Source: an uncultured Candidatus Saccharibacteria bacterium (lineage in GTDB: Bacteria > Patescibacteriota > Minisyncoccia > Phycocordibacterales > DATGWK01). From it: DNA of 58,194 nucleotides. This document shows positions 6,239 to 31,566 of this stretch, piece by piece. Within the stretch, counting starts at the first letter, position 1, and each line of letters opens with the position of its first letter. Below the pieces are notes generated by a model that did not search any database, had not been told where the DNA came from, and worked only from the letters and a program-made list of their open reading frames with translations. The position numbers and the translations under genes are program-made. The stretch is taken from contig CAYRZH010000001.1 in NCBI GenBank assembly GCA_964428845.1, positions 1 to 58,194 of the forward strand, read 5' to 3'.

Positions 6239-7402
6239 TTATTTGCTGTCTCCCAGACGCCTAAGGGCAACCCCTAGAGCAACAGCGAATTCCGGTCCAT
6301 TCTGTTTTAAGACATTTCCTAGAAATGCAGGGGCTTCGACCTTGGAAAATGGGTCGGCGAGGACGACTGGCATTTCGAGATTCTTTTGGGCGAGTTCGGC
6401 GAAGCCTTTCATTCCTGATCCGCCTCCTACGAGTACTGTTTTTTGAATACTTTTTTTGTATTTAGCTTGATAATTGAGGGCCGCCCGACGAGCTTCCGAA
6501 AAAACAAAGTCTAGAGACAGAGAAATAACTTCGGCCATATCTTTTTTATCTGGTTCTTTGCTCCAACCGGTAGTGCGCTTCAGAATTTCGGCCTTTTCTA
6601 CTGATATGGAGAGTGATGTGGCCAAAGCCATGGTTATGTCTTGAGATCCGCGACTTATAGTGTGAGAGCTACGTACGATGCCGCGCTCGACGATGTAGAG
6701 CTTGGTAGAAGCGGCACCTGTATCAAGTATCATGACCGGCTCGACATTTTGGTCCAAAACCGAGCGAATAGTGCTAAAAATTTCGATCTCAAAGAAATTG
6801 GCGTCGAGACCCGTCTTATTTACAATCTCCTGGTAGTCTCTAATAGTCTCATTGTGTATAGCGACGAGAAGGACATCTGTTTTAGGAACTGTAGATTTTT
6901 CAATCTTTTGTCCTTCCATTTGCCCGGCCAATTCTTCCCCTTCTCCGCCTGGCCCAGCGCCAAGCGGCGTATCGCCTTGTTTGAACTGATCTCTCGGAAC
7001 AATAGACCAGTCGAGGCTTACCTCTGAAATAGGCACGGGAATGTATTTCCGCGCTTCTATAGGGATCATCTGGGCAAGTTGCCTATCCGAGACAAGAGGC
7101 ACCTCGACAATACTCATGAGACTTGAAGCGAAGGGAATAGCCACACCGCCTCGCTTGGTGGTTGTTTTTGCTTCGCGCAGTATGTCGGTCAGGGCAACGA
7201 TGATTTGTTCGACTGGGAGGTTGGTGGCGCGACCGATTTCTACTTTGGCATATGGCCCGAGAGCCAGTGCCCCATAGGTCTCAAGAATAGCGCGGCCGTG
7301 CTTTTGCTTGATTTGGACAACTTTAATAGCCGACGAACCGATGTCGATACCGAGGACGCTGGTTTCCTTCTTTTTAAAAAAATTTGAAAAGAAATTTGCC
7401 AT
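6239..7402 (-). CDS. pilM: Type IV pilus assembly protein PilM
   Basis: LGIDIGSSAIK actin-like motif, IEARKYIPVP, LDTGA, VLVGGGS. Confidence 0.92.
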   Translation of the reverse strand: MANFFSNFFKKKETSVLGIDIGSSAIKVVQIKQKHGRAILETYGALALGPYAKVEIGRATNLPVEQIIVALTDILREAKTTTKRGGVAIPFASSLMSIVEVPLVSDRQLAQMIPIEARKYIPVPISEVSLDWSIVPRDQFKQGDTPLGAGPGGEGEELAGQMEGQKIEKSTVPKTDVLLVAIHNETIRDYQEIVNKTGLDANFFEIEIFSTIRSVLDQNVEPVMILDTGAASTKLYIVERGIVRSSHTISRGSQDITMALATSLSISVEKAEILKRTTGWSKEPDKKDMAEVISLSLDFVFSEARRAALNYQAKYKKSIQKTVLVGGGSGMKGFAELAQKNLEMPVVLADPFSKVEAPAFLGNVLKQNGPEFAVALGVALRRLGDSK

Positions 7403-7440: not shown

Positions 7441-8193
7441 ATGACTTTCATTTCAAAAATTTGGCGAGTAGTGGGTTTGTTTTTTGATTTTTTATTTCCA
7501 AGGGACGCGCGCGTTCGGAGGCTTGAAGAAATGGGCTCGAGCGAGATCTCGGCGGCGCTTCCGGCGGCGCGGCCGTTTGAAAATCTTCCTGCAGAGCTGG
7601 ATCGCGGCAGATTTTTTGCCCTCTTTGACTATAGCAACGAGACGGTGAAGCAGATTGTTTGGGAGATAAAATATAGGAAAAATCTGGTTCTCGCCGCGAA
7701 AATGGGTGAACTTTTGGCGGGGAGGGTTTTGGAGGTTGTGAAAGCTTCAGATACTCGTCCAGATGCTCGCCCAAATGCTCGCGCGGAAAATTTTCTTTTC
7801 CTTCCTATCCCCTCTTCTCGGCGGCGGCGTAGGTGGCGAGGGTTCAATCAGACAGAACTTATCGCACAGGAAGTGGTGAAAAGCCTGAGAGAAAAAGTAG
7901 ATTCTCCAAACTCGTCTTTTGAGATATTGTCGGCCGGTTTTTCATATGCAGACGTTTTAGCCAAGATAAAAGAGACTCCCCCGCAGTCGTCTCTCCCCGA
8001 GCGCCACGAACGTCTCACAAATCTGGTTGGAGCATTTGATCTAAAAGATGCGGCCGCTGCCGGACTCGTGCGCGGAAAAAATATTGTGATCATAGACGAT
8101 GTCATCACTACGGGGGCGACGATGAGGGAGGCGGTGCTGGTATTTTTGCGCGCCGGAGCAAAGAATATTTATGGATTTTCGGTGGCGCATTGA
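7441..8193 (+). CDS. comF: ComF family competence protein (PRTase-like)
   Basis: PIPSSRRRRRWRGFNQTELIA and IIDDVITTGATM motifs; start uncertain (7408 or 7441). Confidence 0.85.
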   Translation: MTFISKIWRVVGLFFDFLFPRDARVRRLEEMGSSEISAALPAARPFENLPAELDRGRFFALFDYSNETVKQIVWEIKYRKNLVLAAKMGELLAGRVLEVVKASDTRPDARPNARAENFLFLPIPSSRRRRRWRGFNQTELIAQEVVKSLREKVDSPNSSFEILSAGFSYADVLAKIKETPPQSSLPERHERLTNLVGAFDLKDAAAAGLVRGKNIVIIDDVITTGATMREAVLVFLRAGAKNIYGFSVAH

Positions 8194-8879: not shown

Positions 8880-8967
8880 GGAGAGTTGGCTGAGCTGGCC
8901 GAAAGCGCCTCACTGCTAACGAGGTAGGGTCTAAAAGCCCTCGTGGGTTCGAATCCCACACTCTCCG
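8880..8967 (+). tRNA. tRNA-Ser(GCT)
   Basis: GGAGAGT/ACTCTCC acceptor stem, anticodon arm CCTCA-CTGCTAA-CGAGG, long variable arm, GTGGG-TTCGAAT-CCCAC T arm, G73. Confidence 0.95.
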
Positions 8968-10484
8968 CAAATCGTAACTTCGCGTAAAGACAATGCGGAC
9001 GCGCGCCGTGATGGGCGCACGGCGCGCGACAATTTTCCTCGCCGCTTCGCGGCGAAATGGCTCGGCGGGGGGAATTCAAAAAGGGCGGATTTGTCACGAA
9101 CCCGAGGGTTCGTTCCGATTTTTTGGACGAACGACTTGATTTCGTGCAAATTGTCCGATGTCGCCAAAAAATCGGCTTGTTTCGTATCTAAAATCCATGC
9201 CCGCAGGGGTTCGACCCAATTTTTCTTCCCGCGTTCAAAATCTTTCATTTTGGCTTGCAAAGACGCAGAGGCGCGCATGATGTCGTCTTTCTTGGAAAGG
9301 TAGATTTGTTTCGGCACTTCGCCGTCAAGATACACGCTCACCAGTTTTTCCATGCGCGTCTCTTGCGCTTTGATTTGAGAAGAAAGATTTTGAACCTCGC
9401 TCCCCGTAGTGGCGGATTCCTCGCGCTCCCATTTCTCGACTTCCGCCAGCATCCAGTCCGTGTAGCGTTCGGGGAGCGAGATTGTTTGAAGCCGTGCCTT
9501 GATTTGCTCCGCTAAATCTTCTTCGCGCAGATATGGTTGCGAACAGCGACCGCGCTTTTTGGAACAGCGATAATACCGATATTTCGTACCCCAGCGATTG
9601 ACCGCCCATTGCGCGCTTATCATCGAGCCGCACTCGGCACAACGGAATAGTCCGGTAAATGGAAAATCATGCCGAGCGCGGCGGTGGCGCGGCCGCTCTT
9701 TCGTTTTCAAAATCTTTTGCACGGCTTCAAACAATGCGGGAGAAAGAATTGGCTCAAAGTTTCCATCAAACCATTCGCCCTTGTGCTTCACGAAGCCGAT
9801 ATATGCTCTGTGCGTCAAAAGCCGTTTGATGGAAACTTTGGCAAGTGGCGTTCGGTTTTTTGAGACCACGCCGAGTTCCGCCAAAAATTGCGCGAGAGAA
9901 ACGAACGAGTGTGCGCCTTTCGCGTACTCCTCAAAAGCAAGACGGACAATCCGCGCTTCGGTGGGGTGCGGCTCAATATTGCGAATATGCGGATTGTTTT
10001 GATACCCGAAAGGCGCAAGTCCGAGCCACTCTTTCCGGCGCAATTTTTGGCGGATTCCACGCTTGATATTCTCGGCAAGATTGTCCGAATAGTATTTGCT
10101 CTGACCGAACGCCACTTGCAACATAAAGAGCCCCTGCGGGGTCGGTTCAAACCAAAATGTCGGAAAGCGCAAAGACACCACCTTGCGCGTGTCTACGGCG
10201 TAAATAACCCTGCCTCCGTCAATAGAATTACGCGCAAGGCGATCGGGATGCCACGCCAATATCCCGAAATTGTCGCCACTCTCGATTTTTGCCATCATCT
10301 CGCCAAACACTTCACGCCCCGGTGTCTTTGCGCTTTTTGACTCTTGAAATTCCGCAAGAATTTCAAGATTTTCTCTACGCGCATACTCACGAAGCTCAAA
10401 GAGTTGAGCTTCAATAGACATCACTTGTCTATCATCATCTTCGGTGCTTTTTCTCGCGTAGAGAAAATATTTTGGTTTGTTCAT
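8931..10484 (-). CDS. Large serine recombinase (resolvase + recombinase + Zn-ribbon domains)
   Basis: YARKST catalytic Ser motif, DRLAR, GLAPFGY, GLFRCAECG..YYRC zinc ribbon; 3' end runs antisense into tRNA-Ser. Confidence 0.93.
   Translation of the reverse strand: MNKPKYFLYARKSTEDDDRQVMSIEAQLFELREYARRENLEILAEFQESKSAKTPGREVFGEMMAKIESGDNFGILAWHPDRLARNSIDGGRVIYAVDTRKVVSLRFPTFWFEPTPQGLFMLQVAFGQSKYYSDNLAENIKRGIRQKLRRKEWLGLAPFGYQNNPHIRNIEPHPTEARIVRLAFEEYAKGAHSFVSLAQFLAELGVVSKNRTPLAKVSIKRLLTHRAYIGFVKHKGEWFDGNFEPILSPALFEAVQKILKTKERPRHRRARHDFPFTGLFRCAECGSMISAQWAVNRWGTKYRYYRCSKKRGRCSQPYLREEDLAEQIKARLQTISLPERYTDWMLAEVEKWEREESATTGSEVQNLSSQIKAQETRMEKLVSVYLDGEVPKQIYLSKKDDIMRASASLQAKMKDFERGKKNWVEPLRAWILDTKQADFLATSDNLHEIKSFVQKIGTNPRVRDKSALFEFPPPSHFAAKRRGKLSRAVRPSRRASALSLREVTICGECGIRTHEGF
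8965..9095 (+). repeat. Inverted repeat A, left copy (131 bp)
   Basis: Exact reverse complement of 10506-10636, checked base by base. Confidence 0.97.
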
Positions 10485-10505
10485 AATTGGTTTTGATACG
10501 AAACA

Positions 10506-10794
10506 GACAAATCCGCCCTTTTTGAATTCCCCCCGCCGAGCCATTTCGCCGCGAAGCGGCGAGGAAAATTGTCGCGCGCCGTGCGCCCATCACGGCGCGC
10601 GTCCGCATTGTCTTTACGCGAAGTTACGATTTGCGGTGAAATATTACACTTTGCGCGAACCTTTTTTGAGGGGAACTGACCCGCCTCCGCTTCGCTCCGG
10701 CGGGAAGCTCGGGCGCGGCGGGATTCCTCCCCCCAACCCCCTCCTCCCGCCGCGCCCTCGCTTGAATGCAATCCGGCGAAAAAATGCGGCTCCA
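10506..10794 (-). repeat. Central 289-bp junction: inverted copies of A (10506-10636) and B (10631-10794) sharing the core
   Basis: Matches 8965-9095 and 13012-13175 in reverse complement. Confidence 0.97.
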
Positions 10795-10879
10795 GATTGA
10801 GAAAAGAATGGAAAGTTGATATAATTCTACTGCAAGTCATAAAATGTATTATATCATTTTCCATACATTATAATCTACT

Positions 10880-11080
10880 ATGTCCACAATAGGCAAAAAC
10901 ATCAAACGATTTCGACAAGAAAAAGGGCTTTCGCAAGATAAGCTATCAAAACTGGCCGATTTGTCTTTGAATACGGTCGTAAAAATTGAGTTGGATGATA
11001 GCCCCAACCCCACTATTGAGACAGTTCAAAGGATTGCGAAAGCCCTTGAGGTGTCGGTTGATGAATTATTAAAAAAATAA
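10880..11080 (+). CDS. XRE-family HTH transcriptional regulator
   Basis: IKRFRQEKGLSQDKLSKLADLS..IE..PNPTIETVQRIAKALEV. Confidence 0.93.
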   Translation: MSTIGKNIKRFRQEKGLSQDKLSKLADLSLNTVVKIELDDSPNPTIETVQRIAKALEVSVDELLKK

Positions 11081-11084
11081 AAAT

Positions 11085-11489
11085 ATGGACAACGAATCAC
11101 TTATAAAAACAGCAGAGGGCGTTCTCAACCGACACACGGATTCAAACGGGCGCTTGCACGGCGATGTTGGAGCGGCAATCCTTGGCAGAAATGGGAAGAT
11201 GTATACCGGTGTATGTGTTGATACGCCGAGTTGGGGTTTGTGTGCCGAACGAAGCGCGCTCGCCACGATGATTACTGATCGAGAGTACAATTTCAAAAAA
11301 GTCGTTGCCGTGTGGAAAGACGACAAAACCGGCAAACTTCATGTACTAGCGCCATGCGGCCACTGTCGCCAATTTATGCGTGACATCAGCGAAGAAAATA
11401 TGGAGGCGGAAGTGTTGCTCGGACGCGATAAGTCCGAACCTCTAAAAAATCTAATTCCGCATCACGAATGGCCGGAGGCAATTGAATAA
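11085..11489 (+). CDS. Cytidine deaminase-family protein
   Basis: VGAAIL, CAE and PCGHCRQ zinc motifs. Confidence 0.88.
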   Translation: MDNESLIKTAEGVLNRHTDSNGRLHGDVGAAILGRNGKMYTGVCVDTPSWGLCAERSALATMITDREYNFKKVVAVWKDDKTGKLHVLAPCGHCRQFMRDISEENMEAEVLLGRDKSEPLKNLIPHHEWPEAIE

Positions 11490-11493
11490 AATT

Positions 11494-12330
11494 ATGCCAG
11501 AAGAACAGCAACAAGAAGAAATAAAAATTGATCAGTACCTAGAATCACCGAAGGCGTTTCATCTTGAGATGCCTCTCTATCATGCGCTTGATTTGAGCAT
11601 TGGCGTAGTTGCGGAAAAAGTTTTTGAGCACATTGCTCACTCGGGGACAATGGATGCCTATTGTATTTGGTGCGACAAAGAAAGTGTTTTTGATGCCGAG
11701 GAATATGTATACGGTAAAACATACGGGGCTTGGAAGCGTGAGGATTTTGGATTCAGACGAAACTCCTACAAGTGTACTCGCAATAATAATCATCGCTACT
11801 ACATTTATTTTTTCAAAGGCAAGGATGTTCTTATGAAAATCGGTCAATGGCCATCTGTAGCTGATTTTCAGATTCCGCAAGCAGAAAAATATCGGAAAAT
11901 CCTCGGCGAAGAAGAGTACAAAGAGCTCACGCGCGGTATCGGGCTTTCGGCGCACGGCGTTGGTATCGGCTCTTTTGTCTATTTACGCCGAGTTTTTGAA
12001 AATCTGATTGAGGAGGCCCATCAAAAGGCGAAAACCGAAGACGCATCATTTTCGGAGGAATCGTACGCACGAGCGAGAATGGACGACAAGATTGAAATGG
12101 TACAGGAACACTTGCCAGCGTTTCTCGTCGAGAATAGATCGCTCTACGCAATTATGAGTAAAGGCATTCACGACTTGACCGAAGATGAATGCCTGCAGTA
12201 TTTCGAGACAGTAAAAATTGGCATTGAGCAAATCCTCGACGAGAAAATTATTGCTAAAGAGAAAGCTGACAAAGCAGCCGCCGCTCGCGCCGCCATTCAA
12301 AAAGCACACGGCAAAATTAATGGGTCATAA
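11494..12330 (+). CDS. Hypothetical protein (possible DUF4145/HEPN-like C-terminus with N-terminal Cys pair)
   Basis: CIWCDK; GIGSFVYLRRVFENLIEE; LSKGIH-like segment; family not confirmed. Confidence 0.6.
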   Translation: MPEEQQQEEIKIDQYLESPKAFHLEMPLYHALDLSIGVVAEKVFEHIAHSGTMDAYCIWCDKESVFDAEEYVYGKTYGAWKREDFGFRRNSYKCTRNNNHRYYIYFFKGKDVLMKIGQWPSVADFQIPQAEKYRKILGEEEYKELTRGIGLSAHGVGIGSFVYLRRVFENLIEEAHQKAKTEDASFSEESYARARMDDKIEMVQEHLPAFLVENRSLYAIMSKGIHDLTEDECLQYFETVKIGIEQILDEKIIAKEKADKAAAARAAIQKAHGKINGS

Positions 12331-12874
12331 AATGAATATACTCGGTTTACAACGCGGAATAGTGCGTCTTGAACCACACAATCCCGAATGGCGGAAACTT
12401 TTTGAAACGGAAAAATCGGCTTTGCAAAAAATTCTTGGCGACAAGTTTATCGCCGCCGAGCATGTCGGCTCAACCGCCATTCCCGACCTTAAAGCAAAGC
12501 CGATTTTAGATTTGATGTTGGCAATACCGGATTTGGATGATTGGGAGTGGCTCAAAGAGCCGCTCGCCAAACTCGGCTACGAGTTTCGCCGCGACTTTAG
12601 AAACGAACAAGGACATATTTTGTTCGTGAAAGGGCCGGAGGAAAACCGAACGCACTATCTTAAAATAACCGAACTCAATTCCGACTTTTGGACGGAACAC
12701 ATTTTGTTTCGCGATTATCTCGTCAATAATCCGCAGTACCGCGAGGAATACCAAAAGTTGAAAGAAAATCTGTTTGACTCTCACGCGGGCAACCGCGAGC
12801 CGTATACGAAAGGTAAAGAGGAGTTTGTGCGGAAGATTCTCAAACTCGCAGGATTCAAGGGCAAAGTGCTCTAG
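12320..12874 (+). CDS. GrpB/UPF0157 family nucleotidyltransferase-like protein
   Basis: EHVGSTAIPDLKAKPILD, FRDYL, Y..GKEEFV. Confidence 0.88.
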   Translation: MGHKMNILGLQRGIVRLEPHNPEWRKLFETEKSALQKILGDKFIAAEHVGSTAIPDLKAKPILDLMLAIPDLDDWEWLKEPLAKLGYEFRRDFRNEQGHILFVKGPEENRTHYLKITELNSDFWTEHILFRDYLVNNPQYREEYQKLKENLFDSHAGNREPYTKGKEEFVRKILKLAGFKGKVL

Positions 12875-13011
12875 GGAGCCAACCCCGCCGTTTTATAATT
12901 TTCTTCAAAACGGCGGGTTGATTGTGCGCGCACTGGGCGGGAGGGGAGCACAATACCAATTTTGTATCTTGCCATTCAGTTTTGATAAAATGGTATGGCA
13001 AGATTCTTTTT

Positions 13012-13175
13012 TGGAGCCGCATTTTTTCGCCGGATTGCATTCAAGCGAGGGCGCGGCGGGAGGAGGGGGTTGGGGGGAGGAATCCCGCCGCGCCCGAGCT
13101 TCCCGCCGGAGCGAAGCGGAGGCGGGTCAGTTCCCCTCAAAAAAGGTTCGCGCAAAGTGTAATATTTCACCGCAA
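13012..13175 (+). repeat. Inverted repeat B, right copy (164 bp)
   Basis: Exact reverse complement of 10631-10794. Confidence 0.97.
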
Positions 13176-13220
13176 TGACCGCGCAGGATGTCTGCGCAGC
13201 AGATATCCGAGCGGGCATCG

Positions 13221-13349
13221 TGCGGATGCGGGATTCGAAAGCCGGAGCGAAGTTGCGATGTGAGCAAAGCGAACCGCAACGAGCGAGGCGGGGTCGCGCA
13301 AAATTTGCGAAGCAAATTTATGCGTGACCGAATCCCACACCCTCCGCCA
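13221..13349 (+). repeat. Hairpin element with tRNA-Ser-3'-end-like arms
   Basis: TGCGGATGCGGGATTCGAA (antisense-like tRNA tail), conserved hairpin ending GTGACC, then GAATCCCACACCCTCCGCCA (sense tRNA tail). Confidence 0.8.
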
Positions 13350-13415: not shown

Positions 13416-14948
13416 ATGGTCATAATCCTCAATTTCGGAAGCCAGTTTGCCCACCTTATAGCAAGGCGCGTGCGGGATCTCGGCGTCAAAGCCGAGATTT
13501 TGCCTTTTGGTGCTTCGGCGTCTGAGATTTTGAAGCACAATCCTGCCGGTATCATTTTCTCTGGAGGGCCTGCATCTGTGTTGGAGAAAGATAGTCCTCG
13601 ACCAGACAAAGAAATATTTAAGCTTGGTATTCCAGTTCTTGGCATCTGTTACGGGCACCAAGTTATGGCACACATGCTTGGTGGTAAGGTCGTTAAGGGT
13701 AAGCATCGAGAGTTTGGCAAAGAGATCTTGAGTATTAAAAATAAGAAAGGAATTTTCCAATCACTTTCTTTAAAAGAGGTCGTTTGGTTCTCTCACGGTG
13801 ATCAAGTATCTGTACTACCGAAAGGACTTAAGCAAACAGCATCTACTACTGGCTGCAAATATGCCGCGTTTGCCGATTCAGAGAATAACTTCTACGGAAT
13901 TCAATTCCACCCAGAAGTAACTCACACTCGGCATGGAGAAAAGTTACTCAAAAATTTCTTGTTCTCAATCTGCAAGGCCAAGAAGAACTGGAAAATCAGT
14001 TCAGTAACAGAAAATATTATTGCAGAGGTTAAGAGTGAGGTTGGAGATAAGCATGTCGTAGTAGGCATCTCTGGGGGTGTCGATTCGTTAGTAGCCGCCA
14101 CGCTTATCCATAGGGCTATTGGCAACAATCTCCATGCGGTGTTTGTAGATACCGGTCTACTACGCAAAGGAGAGGTGAAACAGGTGGCCTCCTATCTGCG
14201 TAAGCATGGATTCAAGAAGCTTCATGTAATTGACGCAAGCCAGCTTTTCTTAAAACGATTAAAGGGCATTTCTGATCCGGAGCAAAAACGAAAAATTATC
14301 GGCCACAACTTTATTGAAGTATTTGAAAAGACGATTAAGAACGAATTCAAAAAGCATACGATCGTGTATCTCGCTCAAGGCACCATTTACCCTGACCGCA
14401 TAGAATCCGCTTCAACCTCTAAAACGGCGGCGAAGATCAAAAGCCACCATAATCTTACGCTTCCTGAAAAGATGGGCTTTAAGATTCTCGAACCAATAAA
14501 GGATTTATACAAAGACGAGGTGCGACGAGTAGGGCTAACTCTTGGACTACCGAGAGAGTTACTTTGGAGACACCCGTTCCCGGGTCCTGGGCTTGCTGTT
14601 CGTATTGTCGGAGAAATTACCGAAGATCGTCTCCGAATCCTTCGAGAGGCTGATGCTGTATTTATTGAAGAATTAAGAAAGGCTGGAGAATACGAAAAAA
14701 TATGGCAAGCATTTGCCGCACTGCTTCCAGTTAAAGTGGTTGGTGTTATGGGCGATGGCCGAACCTACGAATATGTAATAGCCTTACGAGCGGTTGACTC
14801 CATAGACGGAATGAGTGCAGATTGGCACAAAATCCCCAATGAACTTCTGGAAAAGATATCGAGTACGATTATCGGAAAAGTGCGAGGAGTAAATCGGGTG
14901 CTTTACGATATCACCCAGAAACCACCGGCTACTATTGAATATGAATAA
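13416..14948 (+). CDS. guaA: GMP synthase (glutamine-hydrolysing)
   Basis: NFGSQFAHLIARR, GICYGHQ, QFHPEV, SGGVDS, HPFPGPGLAVR, KPPATIEYE. Confidence 0.97.
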   Translation: MVIILNFGSQFAHLIARRVRDLGVKAEILPFGASASEILKHNPAGIIFSGGPASVLEKDSPRPDKEIFKLGIPVLGICYGHQVMAHMLGGKVVKGKHREFGKEILSIKNKKGIFQSLSLKEVVWFSHGDQVSVLPKGLKQTASTTGCKYAAFADSENNFYGIQFHPEVTHTRHGEKLLKNFLFSICKAKKNWKISSVTENIIAEVKSEVGDKHVVVGISGGVDSLVAATLIHRAIGNNLHAVFVDTGLLRKGEVKQVASYLRKHGFKKLHVIDASQLFLKRLKGISDPEQKRKIIGHNFIEVFEKTIKNEFKKHTIVYLAQGTIYPDRIESASTSKTAAKIKSHHNLTLPEKMGFKILEPIKDLYKDEVRRVGLTLGLPRELLWRHPFPGPGLAVRIVGEITEDRLRILREADAVFIEELRKAGEYEKIWQAFAALLPVKVVGVMGDGRTYEYVIALRAVDSIDGMSADWHKIPNELLEKISSTIIGKVRGVNRVLYDITQKPPATIEYE

Positions 14949-15993
14949 AGTTATGGAAAAACAATCTCAACTAGTCGGTAATTTTAGTGAGACGGTTTCG
15001 GTTACGAAACTGTTTTTATCTGAATTTGAAAAAGTCTTTGGAAATACGGAAATAAAAAAGTCGTTACCAACAATAGAGGGAGTCTACATGTACGCGATCA
15101 TTATGCATTTAGGGAAGATTTATAGTAAATCATCAAATGAGCATTTTAGTTTGGATAAATTTAAAAATCTCTTTCCAGAAACTACTGAGAGGGTCAACAA
15201 AATGTATGATGATCACAAAGATATCATTGGAAAAGTTAAAAGTAACCGGGATAAGTTATTTGCGCATACCGACAAAGATTTTTTAAAGTTAGGTTTTTCC
15301 CAAGCACACATTGATAAACTAAAGAGTCTTTATCAAACTGACTTTTCTCGTATTAAGGCGACCGGGAAAGAGCGAGAACGATATACCCCGTTAGATCTTA
15401 ATGATGATTTAGCTGAAATTAAACAGATGTTACAAGAAGCAGACAAATTATGGTGGGACTGTATTATGTTGATTGATTTTGAAAATAAACAAAATGTTAA
15501 AACAAGTGACTTTGAAAATGTATTTTGGGATCTTTTATTTACTTATCGACAATTGTTGCTAAATGGAAATTTACATAAGAGAGTAAATACCGAGGCTTAC
15601 CAAAAGAATGCCGCTACATGGAGTACTATACTTCTCAGTTTAGAGACTGGGGTTGTACTTGGCTTAGCAAAATTACTTGAAAAGAGTTATTTTGGAAGAA
15701 AGTTTGATAGTCAGGAATTAAATCAAATCTCTGAAAAAATTATCAATATGCGGAATCGTCTTATTGCTCATAATGATCTTTCCGTAATGCGAAACAAGAA
15801 ATCCTTTCTCGAAGAGAATCAATTAACGGGTACAGATATTATTAACATGATCGACGCTTTGAAAAGGAGAGCTATTCAATATCAACTAGCATTTAATGCA
15901 AAAATTGAAGTCCAAAAGCTATTTGAAGAAACTACTAGAAATGCTATGGATGACCTCGATGATTGGCTAAGGTCTTTCAGAATGCCGCTGTAG
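14941..15993 (+). CDS. Protein with two AbiU2-like HEPN domains
   Basis: Repeated pattern MHLGKIY..RDKLFAH.D and LGLAKLL..RNRLIAH.D; visibly AT-rich. Confidence 0.6.
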   Translation: MNKVMEKQSQLVGNFSETVSVTKLFLSEFEKVFGNTEIKKSLPTIEGVYMYAIIMHLGKIYSKSSNEHFSLDKFKNLFPETTERVNKMYDDHKDIIGKVKSNRDKLFAHTDKDFLKLGFSQAHIDKLKSLYQTDFSRIKATGKERERYTPLDLNDDLAEIKQMLQEADKLWWDCIMLIDFENKQNVKTSDFENVFWDLLFTYRQLLLNGNLHKRVNTEAYQKNAATWSTILLSLETGVVLGLAKLLEKSYFGRKFDSQELNQISEKIINMRNRLIAHNDLSVMRNKKSFLEENQLTGTDIINMIDALKRRAIQYQLAFNAKIEVQKLFEETTRNAMDDLDDWLRSFRMPL

Positions 15994-21388: not shown

Positions 21389-22489
21389 ATGAATAATAAA
21401 GGAATCGTTAGCACAACAATGCTTGCGGTTATCGTGTTGGTGCTGGTTCTCGTCGGCGCTGGAACATATTTTCTTTTGAATAAGGACGGTGCGTCACCGA
21501 GTGGGAACCCGATTGCTACGTCGACTCCTATCACGCCTACACCGCCCCCAGGGACATCAGCGCCGATCAATATCACCGGCGAGATCACATGTCTACCGAA
21601 AAAAGGCTCCGGGCCACAGACTTTGGAATGTGCCATTGGGCTCAAGGGAAACAACGGTTTGTATTATGGTTTGAAAAACCTATCCCTTTACCCCAACTTT
21701 GCAATCTCTACTGGGACTATGGTTGAAGTCTCCGGAAATTTTATGGCAGAAGAAATGTTTGGCCCGGGTAACTCAAGATACGACATAGCCGGCACGATCG
21801 ATATCACATCAATAAAAGAGGTCTCAATCTCCCCTCCCCCAGGCCAAATTGAAAAAATATCCTTGAAAGAGGGAGAGCGCGAGAGTTCGTTTTTACTACA
21901 AAAAATATATCCTGATCGAGTCACGGGTCTGAATTATATGGAATATCCGGTAGCAACTGGACAAGGGACAGCGGTGACTTTACGCATCGGTGAAAGCGTT
22001 AGTAATGGCTGTACAGTAGTCCTTACCCTTACAAGCATCGAAGGAAATGTTGCAAAATTCAATAAAAAGGTAGACGAGAATCAACCTTGCCCAATATGCC
22101 TCGCAGAGGGTACATCGATCGATACACCACAGGGACCTATGCCAGTAGAAAAGTTACAAAAAGGGATGAGTGTCTGGACCTCTAATGCGGCTGGCGAGCG
22201 TGTTTCCGGAGTGATAATAAAAACATCAAAGACCCCCGTACCTGAAACTCACAGGGTAGTTCACGTTGTGCTCGAAGACGGACGAGAGGTCTATGTCTCG
22301 CCGGGTCATGATACAAAAGATGGTCGAAGAATCGGCGACCTCGTGGTCGGCGACATCATGGATGGCAGTCGCGTAGTAAAGCTCGAATCACAAACTTACC
22401 AAAAGGGCTACACTTACGACATCCTCCCATCTGGTCAAACGGGATTCTACTGGGCTGGCGGAATCCTACTCGACAGCACGTTGCGCTAG
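21389..22489 (+). CDS. Surface-anchored protein with a C-terminal Hint domain
   Basis: Pilin-like N-terminus (KG.VS..ML) plus TM helix and Pro/Thr linker; C|LAEGTSIDTPQG..V..L.KG..VW; HDTKDG; TYDI; no terminal HN. Confidence 0.78.
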   Translation: MNNKGIVSTTMLAVIVLVLVLVGAGTYFLLNKDGASPSGNPIATSTPITPTPPPGTSAPINITGEITCLPKKGSGPQTLECAIGLKGNNGLYYGLKNLSLYPNFAISTGTMVEVSGNFMAEEMFGPGNSRYDIAGTIDITSIKEVSISPPPGQIEKISLKEGERESSFLLQKIYPDRVTGLNYMEYPVATGQGTAVTLRIGESVSNGCTVVLTLTSIEGNVAKFNKKVDENQPCPICLAEGTSIDTPQGPMPVEKLQKGMSVWTSNAAGERVSGVIIKTSKTPVPETHRVVHVVLEDGREVYVSPGHDTKDGRRIGDLVVGDIMDGSRVVKLESQTYQKGYTYDILPSGQTGFYWAGGILLDSTLR

Positions 22490-27326: not shown

Positions 27327-27398
27327 CCATCCTTAGCTCAGCGGTAGAGCAGTCGTCTTATACACGACTGGCCCCAGGTTCGAATCCTGGAGGATGGA
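27327..27398 (+). tRNA. tRNA-Ile with UAU anticodon
   Basis: CCATCCT/AGGATGG acceptor stem with A73; D arm GCTC..GAGC; anticodon arm GTCGT-CTTATAC-ACGAC; T arm CCAGG-TTCGAAT-CCTGG. Confidence 0.9.
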
Positions 27399-30298: not shown

Positions 30299-30703
30299 GG
30301 GGATGTCAGTTTTGACAAGGAAATCAAACTGATCGGTGCAAAGCAGAGCTCGAGTGACTCTCAAATCCGCTCGAAACACTAGGTGCAAACAATCTAGTTG
30401 CCAAAGCAAAGTCATTGGTTTCTCCATATTTTGGAAAGACCGACTTTGCCTTCGCTTACGCTTCGGCCTAAGCGACGTCGCGCTGGTCTCGTCTGAGAAA
30501 CTAGTTGCGGTGTCATAAACTTCAGACTGGAGCATGTTCCCTTCCCGGCTCATGCTCGAGACGTTTCGGGAATCGGTGCGTGGATGTTTTGTTTGTTTTA
30601 TAGTCCACGCCCCTAGATCCGCCTTCGGCGGAAAAAACATACTACGCTTTGTAGATTCAGATCGGTTTCTTTCTTGGACGCGAGTTCGATCTCGCCATCT
30701 CCA
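30299..30703 (+). ncRNA. ssrA: tmRNA
   Basis: 5' GGGGATG pairs with 3' CATCTCC-A; T-loop GAGTTCGATCTC; tag ORF GCC AAA..GCC TAA ending FAYASA; next to smpB. Confidence 0.93.
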
Positions 30704-30708
30704 CAACA

Positions 30709-30746
30709 AAAGAAAATGCCCGCATAAATGCGGGTGTTTTCTTTTG
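30709..30746 (+). terminator. Rho-independent terminator after ssrA
   Basis: AAAGAAAA-TGCCCGC-ATAAAT-GCGGGTG-TTTTCTTT. Confidence 0.75.
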
Positions 30747-30755
30747 TCTGACGTC

Positions 30756-30878
30756 GAGATGGCGAGATCGAAAGGCGGAGCGAATGCCGAGCGAGCACGC
30801 GAGGCCGCGAGCCGGGGTAGCGGAAATTTTCGAGCGACGGCGAGAAAATTATCCGTGACCAATCTCGCCATCTCCACA
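30756..30878 (+). repeat. Hairpin element with tmRNA-3'-end arms
   Basis: 30756-30772 is the exact reverse complement of 30685-30701; 30862-30878 is a direct copy of 30689-30705; GTGACC precedes the direct copy. Confidence 0.88.
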
Positions 30879-30976
30879 TTCATCCTTTTAGGATGCCACG
30901 GAGTATCGTGGCATCACAGAAATCAAACAAAATACCGCTCTAAATAGGCGGTTTTTTGTTGTTTAGGTTTCTAAAC

Positions 30977-31005
30977 TTGACATAAAACTTATGGTATGCT
31001 AGCAT
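30977..31005 (+). promoter_or_regulatory. Sigma70-type promoter
   Basis: TTGACA-17 nt-TAGCAT with an extended TG. Confidence 0.65.
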
Positions 31006-31399
31006 GTACTAACGAAATCACTGTTTGCGGCAACGCATTCGGGTGATAGGGTACCGAGTCATCGTTTGCAGATCGTGCACTCGGTGATGGAGATCTGGTC
31101 CTCTATGAGCAAGGCGACCCCTTGCTGTATGACCAGCGCTAACATGGGGAAAATAGCTTGTGCGTAAGCTACCCCAGGCGAAAAACGGGGCGTGGGACGC
31201 ATTCCCACCACCCCTTTTCAAACAAGCCGGGAGCTCGCGCGTGCGAGCCCCGGTTTTTTCTTTACAAAAGAAGCCAACTTGCGCTGGCTTCTGAAAGAAC
31301 TACTTAACTACAGCTTCAAACAATCACCGTTCCGAGCTGGAGACAGTCCGGGGCTCCGTGGACTGATCTGTCTCGGCGAGCTGTGTACTGATCCTGTAA

Positions 31400-31438
31400 G
31401 GGTCGCGCAAAATTTGCGAAGCAAATTTATGCGTGACC
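31400..31438 (+). repeat. 39-bp hairpin identical to 13291-13329
   Basis: GGGTCGCGCAAAATTTGCGAAGCAAATTTATGCGTGACC present at both loci. Confidence 0.95.
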
Positions 31439-31566
31439 AATCGAGCCATCTGTTCGGTTTTTAAACAGTTGACATAATAAATACTCATGATATAATACCA
31501 ATTAGAAGTCAGTTGCACGAGACCGAGCGTGGAATCGTGGCTGTATTAACAAAGAAGGAGAAAACA

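Follow-up and report, generated by a model that had tools for sequence, protein, structure and literature searches.

Our results show that the segment at 13221-13349 of the window (the whole stretch of 58,194 nucleotides analysed here, from an uncultured Candidatus Saccharibacteria bacterium) is a true member of a family of gene-less, folded elements of about 170 bases that duplicate the tails of tRNA and tmRNA genes in Patescibacteria. The family is apparently undescribed: a search of the full-text literature yielded no description of the element, and a TIGR-Tas paper that it returned was unrelated. We read 13176-13349 as one of a set of non-coding insertion units of roughly 166 to 200 nucleotides that enter the 3' parts of tRNA and tmRNA genes in these bacteria, a reading to which we assign a probability of about 55%. 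At the tRNA-Ser locus, the following features were recognized:

8880-8968, plus strand: tRNA-Ser(GCT), the gene whose tail is mirrored (ARAGORN, Rfam, sequence)
8948-8970, plus strand: tRNA-Ser tail, from the T-loop to the 3' end (sequence)
13176-13220, plus strand: spacer of the element unit, starting with TGAC, with a hairpin at 13182-13198 (homologous to the spacer of unit 2 at locus L017)
13221-13239, plus strand: inverted copy of the tRNA-Ser tail, the 5' strand of closing stem P1 (sequence, fold)
13236-13251, plus strand: junction motif CGAAAGCCGGAGCGAA, with a 3-bp helix G-N-C that pairs with 13288-13290 and whose N covaries through four pair types
13252-13280, plus strand: hairpin P2, GTTGCG...CGCAAC, with apex GC-AAA-GC (fold, alignment)
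13281-13298, plus strand: motif GAGCGAGGCGGGGTCGCG, the 3' side of the junction and the start of P3 (alignment, covariation)
13291-13329, plus strand: hairpin P3 of 39 nt, with apex GC-GAA-GC and the ending CGTGACC (fold, covariation)
13330-13349, plus strand: direct copy of the tRNA-Ser tail, the 3' strand of P1 (tail-match search)

The inverted copy, 13221-13239, reads TGCGGATGCGGGATTCGAA and is the reverse complement of the tRNA-Ser tail at 8948-8969 with a 3-nt gap and one mismatch; it is followed at 13240-13251 by AGCCGGAGCGAA. The direct copy, 13330-13349, reads GAATCCCACACCCTCCGCCA, differs from 8951-8970 at two of 20 positions, and spans the tail from just after the T-loop TTC through the discriminator plus CCA. 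It was the only other match to the tRNA-Ser tail at up to three mismatches in the 58-kb window, with none in 100 shuffles, and our interpretation is that it represents the resident tail, displaced. Both strands of the closing stem thus match 8948-8970. The stretch 13236-13329 contains all three scaffold motifs of the family (CGGAGCGAA, GAGNCGGGGTMGCG and ATSCGTGACC) together with hairpins P2 and P3, the latter holding an invariant G.T/G.U pair, and it scores 125 bits against covariance model R1, whose training set includes this very sequence. No open reading frame lies inside the unit, and the spacer occupies the position that a terminator hairpin takes in other family members. The first-pass annotation had described an antisense tail-like segment at 13221, a 39-nt hairpin ending in GTGACC and a direct tail copy with two differences in 20, all of which we recovered at the positions listed above. 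It had also proposed that removal of the recombinase island lying between tRNA-Ser and the element would give the same spacing as at tmRNA, and indeed the inverted copy then lies 45 nt (13176-13220) from the gene, compared with 47 nt (30707-30753) at tmRNA.

The tmRNA locus of the same window carries a sister unit and a partial third copy:

30299-30706: tmRNA gene (Rfam, ARAGORN)
30686-30879, plus strand: sister unit as a whole (fold, alignment to the tRNA-Ser element, empty sites in relatives)
30686-30706, plus strand: tail of the tmRNA gene
30707-30753, plus strand: terminator hairpin
30754-30772, plus strand: inverted tail
30773-30860, plus strand: scaffold
30861-30879, plus strand: direct tail copy
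31400-31452, plus strand: partial third copy, consisting of P3 and a degenerate tmRNA-like tail, AATCGAGCCATCTG (covariance model, sequence)

The segment 13221-13349 is homologous to the post-tmRNA element at 30754-30879, and on alignment the motifs CGAAAGSCGGAGCGAA, GCGAGSCGGGGTMGCG and TTATSCGTGACC are identical in both. The tmRNA tail has one inverted match (30752-30769) and one direct match (30861-30878), where 0.05 were expected. The tRNA-Ser and tmRNA elements share one three-way-junction fold (z = -5.6 and -6.4, respectively). The inverted tail can pair instead with the real tail of the gene across the terminator, which for the stretch 30686-30775, treated as DNA, yields a folding energy of -36 kcal/mol (z = -10.5). 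The partial third copy sits about 520 nt past the tmRNA element; the covariance model matched its P3 (31400-31438) as a hairpin-only fragment, and this P3 is identical to 13291-13329, so that the same 39-nt hairpin occurs at two sites of the genome. This third copy suggests an older, larger insertion at tmRNA. The stretch at 30977-31250 has a promoter-like arrangement (TTGACA, 17 nt, TAGCAT) and a terminator about 240 nt further on; it is GC-rich and structured, has no open reading frame and no Rfam match, and may be a small RNA carried between the two tmRNA-associated elements.

About 25 relatives were found with pattern scans and the covariance model, in Patescibacteria only. The pattern scan of species-representative genomes gave 38 loci, 13 of which are genuine members, from Saccharibacteria, Paceibacterota, Taylorbacteria and unclassified lineages, the others being GC-rich chance matches. 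A metagenome scan added eight members, and the covariance model, trained on 17 members, detected further copies after tRNA-Arg, tRNA-Val, tRNA-Ser and tRNA-Gly. The host genes encode tRNA-Ser, Val, Met, Arg, Tyr and Gly as well as tmRNA, and the element lies downstream on the same strand, 40-100 nt past the gene in every member with upstream DNA and a recognizable gene; at L019 and L042, ARAGORN detected no tRNA or tmRNA gene in the upstream DNA. Most members adjoin their tRNA or tmRNA genes without an island, and units are found at a minority of tRNAs only. In the usual layout, the gene tail is followed by a terminator-like hairpin, the inverted tail, the scaffold and the direct tail copy, and successive tail copies are spaced 166-201 nt apart. 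Wherever the upstream gene is known, the direct copy begins right after the T-loop TTC, and direct copies end 1-3 nt beyond the discriminator. Tandem units with repeated tails occur at L017, L040 and L009, tandem units of unlike type exist, and L041 has a Ser-type scaffold located at tmRNA. The inverted copy is weak in L002, L025, L032 and L043, where P1 has just 7-10 bp. An exception to the layout is L045 (432-565, minus strand), in which the scaffold begins 8 nt after tRNA-Arg(CCG), with neither inverted tail nor far copy.

Two further properties of the family bear on its origin. First, the cores of the tmRNA elements are 85-90% identical among four genomes whose tmRNAs are 57-62% identical, and 79-87% identical at positions not fixed by the search pattern, whereas the terminator spacers of these units are not conserved and fall far below the scaffold. 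A conserved scaffold beside a variable spacer argues for selection on the scaffold rather than recent transfer; this selection is either for the element's own propagation or for a host function, and the latter also explains the conservation. Second, nearly all tRNA genes at the patescibacterial loci end in discriminator plus CA, not CCA, whereas seven of about 14 far copies end in discriminator plus CCA. For six of these seven the gene is in hand, and it reads CA (five) or CCC (one), never CCA. The CCA on far copies is not predicted by a simple displacement of the resident tail.

The relatives all have a three-way junction in common, its closing stem made of the adjoining gene's own tail. Across an alignment of 17 sequences, pairing extends to 96.4% of cells, and both partners have changed in 10 of the 23 pairs; none of 500 shuffles reached these values, and the slid controls had 35-54% of cells paired. 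The middle base of the 3-bp junction helix occurs in four pair types. The invariant G.U (G.T) pair and the alternation of GC with GU, which would be A.C on the opposite strand, show that the folded strand is the tRNA-sense one. Hairpin apexes are mostly GC-GNA-GC triloops, with odd tetraloops, and never GNRA or UUCG. Since d(GCGNAGC) is a DNA mini-hairpin of unusual stability, these apexes hint that the moving form may be single-stranded DNA; GCGNAGC is not enriched genome-wide. The scaffold also contains GA-rich internal loops. A scan of the window and 13 loci with Rfam 15 at the gathering threshold returned only tRNA and tmRNA, the elements matching no family, and a permissive scan of both elements with E-values up to 10 gave nothing relevant and no match to the tRNA clan. 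A hammerhead or other known three-way ribozyme core was rejected by eye, as the junction strands of 5, 2 and 0 nt do not fit.

Occupied and empty sites could be compared at both loci. The first-pass annotation had called for a comparison of the interval between tRNA-Ser and guaA in relatives that lack the island. Relative L058, whose GuaA is 90% identical, keeps the order pilM-comF-tRNA-Ser(GCT)-guaA with 63 nt from tRNA-Ser to guaA, and this interval holds neither element nor island. In relative L047, whose GuaA identity is similar, the orthologous tRNA-Ser(GCT) bears a tail-mirroring three-way junction built on another scaffold, and all that is left in L048 is a 20-nt remnant together with a tail copy that ends in CCA. 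At tmRNA, the unit is absent from L052, L053 and L056, in which the order FtsH-SmpB-tmRNA is kept, and what follows the far tmRNA tail copy in the window has its homologue in the L056 flank; in L054, a close SmpB relative, RecG and tRNA-Ile(TAT) are also found upstream. As syntenic relatives are empty at both loci, the element is an insertion. Between its element and guaA, L047 also carries a small islet that encodes two HNH proteins and a fragment of a DNA methylase; direct repeats of 28 nt (6343-6370 and 7943-7970), AACTAAGTATYGGAGTGACYCGAGTA, form its bounds, and L058 has one related copy of them.

The direction of insertion can be read most clearly at the tmRNA copy, not at the tRNA-Ser copy. 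The tmRNA T-loop of relatives reads TTCAATC, as does the far copy in the window, and the functional tail and the inverted copy read TTCGATC. In all 11 of 11 units the inverted copy matches its own gene's tail at least as well as it matches the far copy, and L024, L030 and L037 have decayed far copies. A far copy with the relatives' allele, next to a gene tail and inverted copy that share the other allele, points to integration in the T-loop, with the new tail brought in by the element. This argument at tmRNA hangs on one diagnostic base, and a template-switch or gene-conversion correction of the palindrome formed by tail and inverted tail could mimic the pattern. What is seen otherwise resembles insertions of the T-loop class: the insert lies between direct repeats of the tRNA 3' segment that agree from the T-loop onward, and empty sites with continuous flank occur (L052, L053 and L056 at tmRNA, L058 at tRNA-Ser(GCT)-guaA). 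The unit has no integrase; the only recombinase nearby is part of an island that is separate and has junctions of its own. Unitigs of the source run agree with the assembly and include no empty-site or otherwise informative joints, and the genome was found in the source run only; neither an excised form nor polymorphism between strains was seen.

On this basis, an insertion could proceed as follows. The unit would consist of a copy of the gene from T-loop to 3' end, a terminator-like hairpin or spacer, an inverted tail copy and a two-hairpin scaffold ending in CGTGACC, with the displaced resident tail lying beyond it. Recombination would take place within the T-loop, as for tRNA-targeting integrases of the T-loop class, so that the element's tail copy would complete the gene and the old tail would be pushed to the far side. 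As the unit codes for nothing, a recombinase acting in trans, whose gene lies elsewhere, would have to move it. What that enzyme recognizes is probably a folded single strand, on whose constant scaffold the inverted tail and a tail copy would pair to imitate the duplex target. At tRNA-Ser, the serine-recombinase island integrated later, at CCGCAA, the extreme end of the tRNA gene, parting the tRNA from the rest of the unit.

The unit acts most like a recombinase-less, tRNA-targeting integrative element whose site would lie on a folded single strand. Several searches were made for the enzyme. No recombinase was found within the units or consistently beside them. In Pfam searches of five ORF sets, taken from the window beyond its first 6.2 kb, the serine recombinase of the island was the only mobilizing enzyme, and an all-against-all BLAST of the ORFs around the elements recovered just housekeeping synteny (PilM, ComF-like, FtsH, SmpB). 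Strict and loose scans of viral contigs gave no match, nor did blastn against phage and plasmid records.

Comparison with known systems places the unit near several of them. The T-loop class of Williams' sublocation scheme comprises integrative elements, genomic islands and prophages, that target tRNA and tmRNA genes. Like these islands, the unit has the gene's 3' segment, from T-loop to 3' end, repeated directly on either side, leaves the gene intact, forms tandem arrays at one gene and uses Ser, Arg, Val, Met and tmRNA genes; unlike them, it measures about 170 nt, has neither integrase nor any gene, and contains an inverted tail copy and a conserved three-way-junction scaffold. CIMEs are cis-mobilizable elements of streptococcal ICEs, and IMEX elements use the host XerCD. 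The unit shares with both the attachment-site bounds, a presumed dependence on a recombinase from elsewhere and the tandem accumulation at a site, but CIMEs and IMEX are kilobases long and carry genes, and their sites are not tRNA tails on a structured scaffold. As in the attP(+) of CTX phage and the attC of integrons, one specific strand folds into an imperfect hairpin and the variable arm conserves structure above sequence. The CTX phage hairpin mimics a duplex target, comparable with the tail-mimic stem of the unit, and the order of parts after integration (site, spacer, inverted site, loop, site) recalls the end of an integrated CTX prophage. The unit differs from attP(+) and attC in having a tRNA tail as its target and a three-way junction in place of a simple hairpin; its single-stranded DNA form would follow from strand asymmetry and the GC-GNA-GC triloops, and no dif-like or attC R/L boxes were seen in it by eye.

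A more far-reaching form of the insertion-unit reading is that the units are a new minimal mobile element, a single-stranded circle or transcript of about 170 nt with three arms, in which the duplex mimic of the tRNA tail sets the site. We regard this as a rather doubtful proposal. If it were true, swapping the tail-mimic arm alone would retarget the element, which would amount to a naturally programmable, gene-less module for site-specific integration, and the CCA of the far copies would hint at a step involving mature tRNA, for example RNA-templated or tRNA-primed synthesis.

Among the alternatives to an inserted mobile unit, the most probable, though we consider it unlikely, is a cis-acting RNA module of the host. 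It would be either a structured 3' trailer of the tRNA or tmRNA made by read-through transcription, for example a mimic of the acceptor/T-arm minihelix, subject to processing or CCA-tailing or serving to decoy an enzyme or toxin that binds tails, or else an alternative-pairing switch in which the inverted tail pairs with the real tail or with its copy. The constant strand and position behind the gene would be expected of such a module, as would a structure confined by G.U pairs to the sense strand, a scaffold more conserved than tmRNA itself beside an unconserved spacer, a frequent CCA at the far-copy end as in mature tRNA, and the ability of either tail copy to pair with the inverted tail. 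In the same sense, the stem reproduces the 3' strand of acceptor and T-stem, as do tRNA minihelices, viral tRNA-like structures and the tRNA-like domain of tmRNA, and sometimes ends in discriminator plus CCA. Unlike these structures, however, the unit has no T-loop, its stem pairing through the T-loop bases; no transcript of it was detected in low-depth metatranscriptomes, and it has no match to the Rfam tRNA clan. In most members a hairpin resembling an intrinsic terminator stands between gene and element. In eight metatranscriptomes covering the tmRNA of relatives or of L002 (in four of the eight, the tmRNA shares 99% identity or more with the L002 one), RNA contigs end at the tmRNA 3' end and none extends over the element, which at this low depth is weak evidence against a trailer. 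A host module also fits poorly with units on only a minority of tRNAs, with syntenic relatives that lack the unit at both loci, with tandem units and differing scaffolds at one tRNA, and with apexes that are GC-GNA-GC triloops rather than GNRA or UUCG. A mobile element is favoured over a fixed host module, since a minority of tRNAs are occupied, tandem units are unlike, scaffolds differ at one tRNA, L041 has its Ser-type scaffold at tmRNA and the 39-nt hairpin is identical at two sites.

The constancy of the scaffold and the variation of the arm with the adjoining gene, the representation of the target by both strands and the GA-rich internal loops, which are typical of protein-binding sites, would also suit a guide for an RNA- or DNA-guided enzyme. 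The scaffold would then bind a protein encoded elsewhere and the tail arm would programme the site, in the manner of the bridge RNA of the IS110 family, which likewise has a constant folded scaffold and segments matching both target strands. We consider this decidedly improbable. The two putative guide segments are mutually complementary and form a stem, whereas the loops of bridge RNA are unpaired. No conserved partner gene lies beside the units, neither an adjacent DEDD recombinase gene nor the end of an insertion sequence accompanies them, the scanned window ORFs include no IS110-type or other transposase, and no expression was seen in the eight low-depth metatranscriptomes.

Gene tail, terminator and inverted tail together form near-perfect long palindromes, with arms of 38 nt in L024 and the strongly folding 30686-30775 in the window, and quasi-palindrome correction is an established mutational process. 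Template switching at a palindromic tRNA terminator might thus duplicate tails as a passive by-product, the remainder being neutral sequence. As a complete explanation this is contradicted by scaffold conservation and covariation and is very improbable: it cannot account for near-invariant scaffold motifs with compensatory changes, nor for a scaffold common to Saccharibacteria, Paceibacterota and related groups beside at least seven kinds of gene.

There remains the relation of the element to the island, which has the following parts:

8971-13175, no strand: large-serine-recombinase island, a later insertion separate from the element (inverted repeats, Pfam, L050/L051, colinearity with L017)
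8962-9095 with 10506-10639: first pair of island arms (inverted repeats, 134 nt)
10631-10794 with 13012-13175: second pair of island arms (inverted repeats, 164 nt)
8931-10484, minus strand: serine recombinase ORF (Pfam Resolvase, Recombinase, Zn_ribbon_recom)

The cargo comprises an HTH protein, a deaminase, a 278-aa protein and GrpB. The ends of the island are set by the inverted repeats and by a common 9-bp core at 8962-8970 and 13167-13175; the core, TC[T/A]CCGCAA, occurs at 8962 (+), 10631 (-) and 13167 (+). From the layout of core and arms, the left junction is tRNA/arm X and the right junction arm Y'/flank, with an intact, inverted Y'-core-X lying internally. Unitig depths of the source run are consistent with this layout. 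Related islands with the same double inverted-repeat architecture are present in L050 (recombinase 88% identical) and L051 (84%), the latter likewise at tRNA-Ser(GCT). As these are independent assemblies whose arms have partly diverged, the inverted repeats are not an assembly artefact. One long inverted-repeat pair flanks the recombinase gene and the other the cargo, around an intact inverted putative attP, and a circular form of the island would have two inverted repeats of about 300 bp parting two unique segments, like the yeast 2-micron plasmid. The recombinase ORF crosses the left arm and ends within tRNA-Ser (stop at 8931-8933), so that the stretch coding for its last roughly 50 residues spans the attachment junction, and these residues would be different after excision. 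The 12-mer GCCGGAGCGAAG, at 13241-13252 in the element, recurs in the Y arms at 13105-13116 and 10690-10701 (reverse strand), within a GCGAAGC hairpin; homology between element and island arms stops at this 12-mer.

The element is independent of the island, since the sequence past the right end of the L050 and L051 islands contains no tail-mirroring element and family members occur without islands. When 8971-13175 is removed, the window is colinear across the junction with the uninterrupted unit at L017 (77.5% identity over 222 columns), in the order tail, AATGAC, hairpin, inverted tail, scaffold and tail plus CCA. At the level of sequence comparison, this shows the element to have been in place before the serine-recombinase island landed between it and tRNA-Ser, in agreement with the first-pass annotation, which had proposed that the element predates the island and that the site has been hit at least twice. 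That the segment is instead the island's true attR, travelling with the recombinase, or a relic of it, might be thought from its place 45 nt past the right arm, its tRNA-tail copy and the 12-mer shared with 13105-13116, but is extremely improbable and found no support when tested, as the island has separate junctions at the 9-bp cores 8962-8970 and 13167-13175, with the element 45 nt outside the latter, L050 and L051 lack the element, the family is present where no islands are, colinearity with L017 returns on removal of the island, and the similarity to the arms is confined to 12 bases.

Other features of the window include a tRNA-Ile with a genomically encoded TAT anticodon (27327-27398), which also occurs in L037 (7619-7693) and L054 (809-884); it is conserved beside recG/ftsH in these Patescibacteria and has no tail-mirroring element. 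A HEPN/AbiU2-family gene lies right after guaA (14935-15993) and a Hint-domain protein is encoded at 21389-22489, both as accessory genes amid a housekeeping stretch.

The interval between tRNA-Ser and guaA has thus served two unrelated elements in this genome. For annotation, the element explains orphan tRNA-tail fragments beside tRNA genes in the genomes that carry it. If the reading as insertion units is true, the tRNA and tmRNA genes of Patescibacteria are host to a widespread parasite or commensal that has no gene of its own, rebuilds the gene end that it interrupts and combines a conserved fold with a variable arm copying its target. It would be a candidate addition to libraries of RNA and DNA motifs and would offer a compact natural model in which to study the reading of a structured, target-mimicking site by a recombinase; it would also serve as a marker of repeated traffic at tRNA genes in bacteria in which recognizable mobile elements are few.
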